Below, one piece after another: positions 33,782 to 34,068 of a stretch of DNA of 64,000 nucleotides. Position numbers and translations under genes: made by a program. A model generated the notes under the pieces. That model was given only the letters and a program-made list of their open reading frames with translations, was not told the origin of the DNA and did not search any database. Within the stretch, counting starts at the first letter, position 1. Each line of letters starts with the position of its first letter. This stretch comes from Escherichia coli (GTDB taxonomy: Bacteria > Pseudomonadota > Gammaproteobacteria > Enterobacterales > Enterobacteriaceae), in the NCBI RefSeq assembly GCF_003790525.1, contig NZ_CP033634.1. One strand, given 5' to 3'.

Positions 33782-34068
33782 ATGAGTACCCGAAATATCC
33801 ACGTTAACACCGCGTCGTACACGATTCTTGTTGCCGGGAGGGAAAAAACACCGGGGAAGAGTGGGACGTCCTGGAATTCAGCAGCCTGACTGAGCTGAAA
33901 AAATATCGCAAAAGCCACCCGGAAAAGATGGCCTTCAGCTATAGCTACGCGCTCAGCCGGGGTGTGGATACGCAGTTCCGCCATATCAACATTGCGGAAG
34001 CCGATCACTTCAAACAGTTCCTGCGTCAGATTAAGCGTGCCGGCCTCGATATCCGGGCGATCTGCTGA
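33782..34068 (+). pseudogene. Possible frameshifted small leading-region gene
   Basis: ATG at 33782 opens MSTRNIHVNTASYTILVAGREKTPGK..., stop after 34 codons; a second frame continues ...SSLTELKKYRKSHPEKMAFSYSYALSRGVDTQFRHINIAEADHFKQFLRQIKRAGLDIRAIC to 34068; homopolymer run (gggagggaaaaaac) at the junction. Confidence 0.35.

Follow-up and report, generated by a model that had tools for sequence, protein, structure and literature searches.

The locus at 33782–34068 of the window (the whole 64,000-nucleotide stretch of E. coli plasmid DNA analyzed here) contains the known gene yubO in a frameshifted form, of the kind left by an ordinary slip at a familiar type of mutational weak spot, and identical alleles in other plasmids are already annotated as pseudogenes. 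Our preferred reading, to which we give a probability of about one half, is that the lesion is a real mutation, in which an A7 tract lost one A and the reading frame of yubO was shifted.

Results

One gene in two reading frames

An ORF opens at the ATG at 33782 and, on translation, runs for 35 sense codons to a TGA at 33887–33889; the earlier note had recognized this ORF and counted 34 codons. One base back, an open frame extends from 33808 as far as the TGA at 34066–34068, the end that had been proposed for a continuation in a second frame, and reads ...KNTGEEWDVLEFSSLTELKKYRKSHPEKMAFSYSYALSRGVD...AIC. The frame switch is at gggagggAAAAAAc, with the local context gggaggg-AAAAAA-c. The features of the gene are as follows.

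33768–33773, plus strand: Shine-Dalgarno-like GAGGAG, 8 nt 5' of the yubO ATG, read from the sequence.
33782–34068, plus strand: yubO (ygeA by gene order), frameshifted; 287 nt against the normal 288, by an end-to-end alignment with a single 1-nt gap.
33782–33889, plus strand: 5' portion of yubO, read in the original frame; 21 native residues (MSTRNIHVNTASYTILVAGRE) and a K precede 13 out-of-frame residues and the TGA.
33843–33848, plus strand: poly-A tract, A6 in the window; site of the 1-nt contraction, by alignment with homologues.
33847–34068, plus strand: remaining 3' portion of yubO, which lies in the −1 frame (NTGEEWDV...DIRAIC) and has its stop at 34066–34068; it holds all conserved residues of the family.

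All 287 nt align with yubO, with one gap, and the intact 288-nt CDSs aligned with the window copy are those of NZ_CP026724, NZ_AP021934, pGZM7d and F. The sole difference from the intact homologues sits at the homopolymer, where the earlier note had placed the frame switch: the tract is A6 here and A7 in NZ_CP026724 and pGZM7d. In these four records, as well as in pGF4-A, the region is a single 288-nt, 95-codon CDS labeled ‘hypothetical protein’. Since the homologues form a single ORF and the alignment leaves a one-base gap at the A-run, the two parts are one gene split by a 1-nt deletion and not unrelated ORFs. The outcome that the earlier note named as fatal to its reading, namely two independent sequences, is thus not what alignment to F-like homologues gives. 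The unbroken ORF of about 95 codons expected of a functional family member is lost in the window, with a stop after 35 codons and the rest in the −1 frame.

When one A is added to the window yubO, the protein becomes 100% identical to WP_000107526.1 (95 aa). The repaired YubO and the F protein are 96% identical, with 4 differences in 95 residues, and it is the UniRef name of the F homologue, ‘Uncharacterized protein YubO’ (UniProt YUBO_ECOLI), from which we take the name. In the background of the window, the intact tract allele is GGGAGGG-A7, which reads R-E-K-N; the commoner allele, also present in F, is GGGAAG-A8 and reads K-K-K-N. Megablast against PLSDB showed that thousands of F-like plasmids carry the segment, most of them spanning 422 nt as against 421 in the query.

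A putative single-stranded DNA promoter upstream of yubO

The gene order in the window is psiB, psiA, hok/sok, a Frpo-type repeat, yubO, a DUF932 gene, an opposite-strand SLT transglycosylase gene and traM, which agrees with the leading region of an F-like plasmid suggested by the earlier note. Position and orientation are those of the yubO family, that is, between hok/sok-Frpo1 and yubP, beside the opposite-strand SLT gene and oriT/traM. Three neighboring features enter the argument.

33237–33761, no strand assigned: Frpo-type (class 1 single-stranded DNA promoter) repeat, directly 5' of yubO, from BLAST repeats and alignment with F.
33441–33714, minus strand: long hairpin of the transferred (template) strand within the Frpo-type element, from single-stranded DNA folding.
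34187–35008, plus strand: yubP (ygeB by gene order), DUF932 gene; intact, 273 aa, Pfam PF06067 with E = 2e-52, and with its own AAGGAG ribosome-binding site.

By BLAST, the Frpo-type repeat of about 525 nt has three copies in the window, at 24461–25086, 27790–28427 and 33237–33761. The copies are 93–99% identical and each lies 5' of a leading-region gene block, the second one 5' of ssb. In close relatives, PGAP places a pseudo-CDS, ‘single-stranded DNA-binding protein; frameshifted’, inside these repeats, which is probably spurious.

The copy upstream of the window yubO aligns with the region 5' of yubO in F (F 5480–6032 of locus L012), and its central palindrome matches one between hok/sok and yubO in pMccB17 (PMC10912980). 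The hairpin of the transferred strand, about 270 nt in length, folds at −88 kcal/mol, as against a mean of −47.5 for shuffled sequences (z = −10.75). With both homology to the F Frpo1 region and a stable, long hairpin on the transferred strand, as in the Frpo/ssi class 1 elements, the element upstream of yubO is a putative Frpo1-type single-stranded DNA promoter. Experimental demonstration of such promoter activity in recipients is for F only (PMC9849209).

In the account of Couturier et al., Frpo1 sits upstream of ygeA and ygeB, and ygfA is oppositely oriented and oriT-proximal; a ‘ΔFrpo1-ygeA-ygeB’ deletion was constructed in the same 2023 work (PMC9849209). The F record holds exactly two genes of the same orientation between the Frpo1-type element and the opposite-strand gene. 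As this matches the order Frpo1, ygeA, ygeB and opposite ygfA, ygeA is probably yubO and ygeB probably yubP, an identification based on gene order.

Other variation in the neighborhood was observed. The psiA gene (about 31770–32535) is ‘frameshifted’ according to PGAP in pGZM7d, pGF4-A and the unrelated F-like D10 plasmid A and pTBH7P2; the window psiA is identical to that of pGZM7d and is hence in the same state, which could be a widespread variant or a model artifact. About 13 of 95 metagenome contigs with an in-frame yubO tract (from loci L016–L135) have a shortened yubP ORF; four of these ORFs end at 113 codons, a hint that the partner gene, too, has a recurrent lesion. Finally, an intergenic A-run after the yubP stop (35028–35033) is polymorphic in metagenome contigs, with A5 in 44 and A6 in 31. 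Non-coding runs of A5/A6 length vary, whereas nearby coding runs do not.

Contractions of the tract are recurrent

A search of the RefSeq complete E. coli genomes gave exact matches to the A6 67-mer in 16 of about 2,400 records with the segment; the major allele was contracted from A8 to A7 in 88 records and expanded from A8 to A9 in about 6. In total, the tract puts yubO out of frame in about 4.5% of the complete E. coli records that have the gene, and PGAP had labeled yubO ‘frameshifted’ in every contracted record inspected.

Metagenomes were sampled by a pattern scan of contigs in which any tract length was accepted, yielding 120 loci. The contigs are by appearance mostly short-read assemblies, judging by their SPAdes-style names only. 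The in-frame tract alleles comprise 74 AG-A8, 30 GGG-A7 and 5 other variants; the frameshifted ones comprise 9 AG-A7 and 2 GGG-A6, or 11 of 120 (9%). No tract expansion was seen among the 120 loci.

At least 15 different flanking haplotypes, each of about 400 nt, carry frameshifted alleles; five of these haplotypes, including that of the window, carry intact alleles as well. The identical GGG-A6 allele occurs in an ETEC plasmid lineage (pFORC31.4, pGN4143-2, L1_E925 and E1620) sampled in Korea, Argentina and Guatemala, the origin of one further isolate being unrecorded. No two are alike among the window, this lineage and the two metagenome contigs with A6. Tract contractions have arisen many times independently in F-like plasmids.

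The state of the partner gene differs between these copies. The ETEC A6 lineage has a replacement that takes in the 3' end of yubO and the whole of yubP; pO103 (NC_013354), which has the A8 to A7 contraction in yubO, also has a frameshifted yubP. In D10 plasmid A and pTBH7P2, the frameshifted yubO is accompanied by intact yubP, SLT and traM genes, as in the window. Where the metagenome contig of a frameshifted copy reaches yubP, that gene is intact in 9 of 10.

Every copy with an intact tract retains an ORF of 93–98 codons; inactivation was thus seen at the tract and nowhere else. The A6/T6 runs of the adjacent coding sequence, which served as a control, were invariant in the same contigs, and the second A6 run of yubO was so in 116 of 116.

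Origin of the missing base in the window

The nearest relative found is pGZM7d (NZ_CP129283, from a chicken E. coli in China), in which the tract is A7 and yubO is unbroken. A comparison over 25.5 kb gave 19 substitutions and two 1-nt indels between this plasmid and the window; both indels are A-run contractions in the window, at 33843 (yubO) and at 49902. At both sites pGF4-A agrees with pGZM7d. In a further 24 kb the only indels are changes in tandem-repeat copy number. At 10408 the window has one 8-bp unit fewer than pGZM7d and at 11520 one 8-bp unit more; at 27752 a CTGCTA-type repeat is 24 nt shorter than in pGZM7d and 12 nt shorter than in pGF4-A.

Acquisition of the lesion by recombination from the ETEC A6 lineage was considered and rejected, as the window follows pGZM7d at the SNPs in 33645–33843 and downstream. 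Given that the window and the ETEC lineage differ at these diagnostic SNPs, the contraction in the window was an independent event.

The second contraction was characterized as follows.

49902–49906, plus strand: A-run contraction private to the window, A5 against A6; it shortens a 173-aa hypothetical ORF to 123 aa (ORF 49574–49945).

The ORF lies between traU and trbC. Its product gave no Pfam match, and the A5 allele was found in 0 of 251 other E. coli records.

These data bear on whether the plasmid is truly A7, with an intact yubO, and the consensus sequence lost one A during sequencing or assembly. This is a serious possibility, which we would set somewhat below even. In about 50 kb compared with pGZM7d and pGF4-A, the window has just two 1-nt indels, and each of them contracts an A-run and breaks an ORF, a signature of residual homopolymer errors in long-read assembly; the one at 49902 is unique to the window among the 251 records. 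Furthermore, the exact haplotype of the window with A6 had no match in PLSDB or in the RefSeq complete E. coli genomes. Database copies of yubO can also carry this kind of damage, as in OR902841 (locus L003, OR902841.1, 1583–1868), with two homopolymer deletions within 60 nt. The latter copy is annotated as two small ORFs and is probably from an error-prone assembly.

The assembly of the window does not, however, look grossly error-prone. Among the approximately 65 A/T runs of at least 6 in the collinear stretch, only those at 33843 and 49902 differ from the relatives; the single T8 is the same in them, as are 11 other A/T7 runs. Moreover, about 21 real substitutions separate the window from its relative, at which distance 2–4 natural indels in repeats are expected regardless, and three tandem-repeat copy-number changes also separate the two. 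Lastly, the same lesion of the yubO tract is demonstrably real elsewhere, at a prevalence of 4–9%. That the frameshift rate in isolates (about 4.5%) is not above that in metagenomes (9%) speaks for most such calls being real, and this high natural prevalence, no lower in metagenomes than in isolates, counts toward a real mutation in the window as well. A point on the other side is that F ΔygeA is reported to conjugate poorly (PMC9849209), so a null allele might be selected against. We would read the change in this plasmid as mutation and not as assembly error, the two being about evenly balanced.

Is the tract a switch?

The recurrence of changes at one tract raises the question of whether the A7/A8 run is kept as an adaptive contingency locus, because switching yubO on and off reversibly benefits the plasmid, for example in establishment or in host cost. 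Several observations fit. The changes recur independently (88 A8 to A7, 16 A7 to A6 and about 6 A8 to A9), on and off alleles of yubO occur on identical haplotypes in five cases, with the length variation expected of a contingency tract, every inactivation seen in yubO sits at the tract, and the gene matters for conjugation of F (PMC9849209).

Against this, the tract length of 6–9, together with the bias toward contraction (88 plus 16 as against about 6), speaks against high-rate reversible switching. Tracts of 6–9 are short for a contingency locus. The contraction bias and the confinement of inactivation to the tract are also what neutral or mildly deleterious slippage would produce in a 288-nt gene whose most mutable site is the tract. 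In addition, AAA is the preferred Lys codon in E. coli, and the A-run may be due simply to this preference; the tract is unconserved in more distant homologues. We thus regard a contingency role as unlikely. It is equally a long shot that the tract constitutes a plasmid-borne mutational switch, possibly reversible, which would silence the first gene of a Frpo1-driven zygotic operon while leaving yubP on. If it did, the switch would give F-like plasmid subpopulations differing in establishment or transfer, and would explain why 4–9% of alleles are null in a gene important for F conjugation.

Programmed recoding is highly improbable

The earlier note had left three explanations side by side: a pseudogene, a homopolymer error and programmed slippage. 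In the last of these, the A6 allele would yield full-length YubO, either through −1 frameshifting of the ribosome or through slippage of RNA polymerase that adds an A. The exact wild-type protein would indeed be restored if tRNA-Lys slipped by −1 on GAA-AAA-A or if the mRNA gained one A, but this holds for any 1-nt homopolymer loss. An SD-like GGGAGGG occurs just before the A-run; however, it abuts the run and is missing from the major allele. For stimulatory SD elements of the dnaX/prfB type, a spacing of about 10–14 nt stimulates −1 shifting and a short spacing favors +1, so that an element at this wrong spacing would not stimulate −1 shifting. The zero frame is GGG-AGG-GAA-AAA-ACA and the heptamer, G-GAA-AAA, is not a canonical X-XXY-YYZ; as read from the sequence, only the A-site Lys codon re-pairs perfectly after a −1 slip. 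Folding of the 83 nt downstream (33848–33930) gave no stimulatory RNA structure (−18.8 kcal/mol, z = −0.55, with 56 of 200 shuffles folding as well). As for transcriptional slippage, the thresholds published for E. coli RNA polymerase are 7 T or more, with a longer run needed in the case of A (PMC6260861), and avoidance of, or selection against, slippage-prone runs starts at about 9 nt (PMC1088944); the run of 6 falls below both.

The distribution of the two-frame arrangement also argues against a program. More than 90% of the homologues are single in-frame ORFs, and the frameshifted copies are tips, scattered over haplotypes that intact copies also have. The arrangement is unconserved, the tract being in frame in 109 of 120 metagenome copies and in about 95% of the complete E. 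coli records. The tract codons themselves fall in a variable, Lys-rich loop, where distant homologues have DKPKN, ENEKN or DMPKK, the codons of which are incompatible with an unbroken A-run. We consider programmed recoding highly improbable. The basic reading of the earlier note, a single frameshifted gene, stands; of its three explanations, programmed slippage is not supported, split copies being a scattered minority.

What the frameshift removes

In our homologue survey the YubO family is confined to Enterobacterales plasmids, and its conserved core, EEWDVxEF ... ADHFKQF, begins just past the tract. The AlphaFold2 model of YubO is of moderate quality (pLDDT 67.8, pTM 0.57). In this model the fold is a small alpha/beta one, and the tract residues would make the turn that joins its first and second strands. 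The 35-residue product keeps 21 native residues and no conserved residue, and by the model would retain one strand. As read from the sequence, a C-terminal fragment of 46 residues could start from an internal ATG at 33928, although the ribosome-binding site there is weak.

Searches of Pfam, NCBIfam, PHROGs and PADLOC gave no match that would suggest a function for YubO, and Foldseek of the model against the PDB returned nothing with E < 0.001 (best ERH, TM about 0.42). The only sequence match in the PDB, to a designed propeller (Tako8), was rejected as spurious, with no passing stretch.

Among the representatives of the YubO clusters, P0058, P0062 and P0070 have short internal out-of-frame stretches between compensating indels, e.g., near the second A6 run (33898–33903). 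They may be double frameshifts or assembly errors.

Discussion

Taken as a real mutation, the lesion would most likely have been caused by slipped-strand mispairing during plasmid replication, which changed A7 to A6 at 33843–33848 in a tract that is a recurrent slippage hotspot of F-like plasmids. By the model we favor, entry of the plasmid into a recipient would set off transcription of yubO together with yubP from the Frpo1-type single-strand promoter. The A6 allele would then remove one early ‘zygotic’ protein and spare yubP, and full-length YubO would be made from it in trace amounts only, through non-programmed slippage.

What such a loss may mean can be gauged from work on F, in which YgeA-sfGFP is made early and transiently in transconjugants. 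There, ΔygeA gave 3.9% transconjugants as against 92.6% for the wild type, about 24-fold lower, and ΔFrpo1-ygeAB gave 32.7%; a ΔygeB mutant alone could not be constructed (PMC9849209). The strong ΔygeA phenotype in F contrasts with natural nulls that are fairly common and mostly have yubP intact. These nulls, nearly all of them made at one poly-A tract, offer a lead on how strongly yubO is selected outside the laboratory. In practical terms, the locus should be annotated as a frameshifted yubO pseudogene (or flagged for a read-level check) rather than as two small ORFs.

Several known systems bear comparison with the window locus. First, yubO/ygeA of F (NC_002483 64032–64319) has the same synteny, i.e., Frpo1-type element, yubO, yubP/DUF932, opposite-strand SLT and traM. 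Its tract is in frame (A8, KKKN), whereas the A6 of the window leaves 21 native residues before the frame is lost. Second, the yubO copies that PGAP labels ‘hypothetical protein; frameshifted’ (pFORC31.4, pGN4143-2, pO103, D10 plasmid A and pTBH7P2) have the same type of lesion at the same tract. They sit in other plasmid backgrounds and are independent events with respect to the window, in which yubP is intact, unlike in the ETEC lineage and pO103. Third, in the phase-variable genes of Neisseria, Haemophilus and Campylobacter, the length of a coding homopolymer likewise toggles the frame, with on and off states on identical sequence. In yubO, by contrast, the tract is much shorter, the off alleles are a 4–9% minority and there is a strong bias toward contraction. 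Fourth, dnaX-type −1 frameshifting and transcriptional slippage (Thermus dnaX, Shigella mxiE, IS elements) likewise involve an A-run where two frames overlap, and a −1 slip or an inserted A in the window yubO would also yield a sensible fusion protein. Unlike those systems, the window yubO has a run of only 6, without a canonical heptamer, a correctly spaced SD or a downstream structure, and its split into two frames is unconserved.
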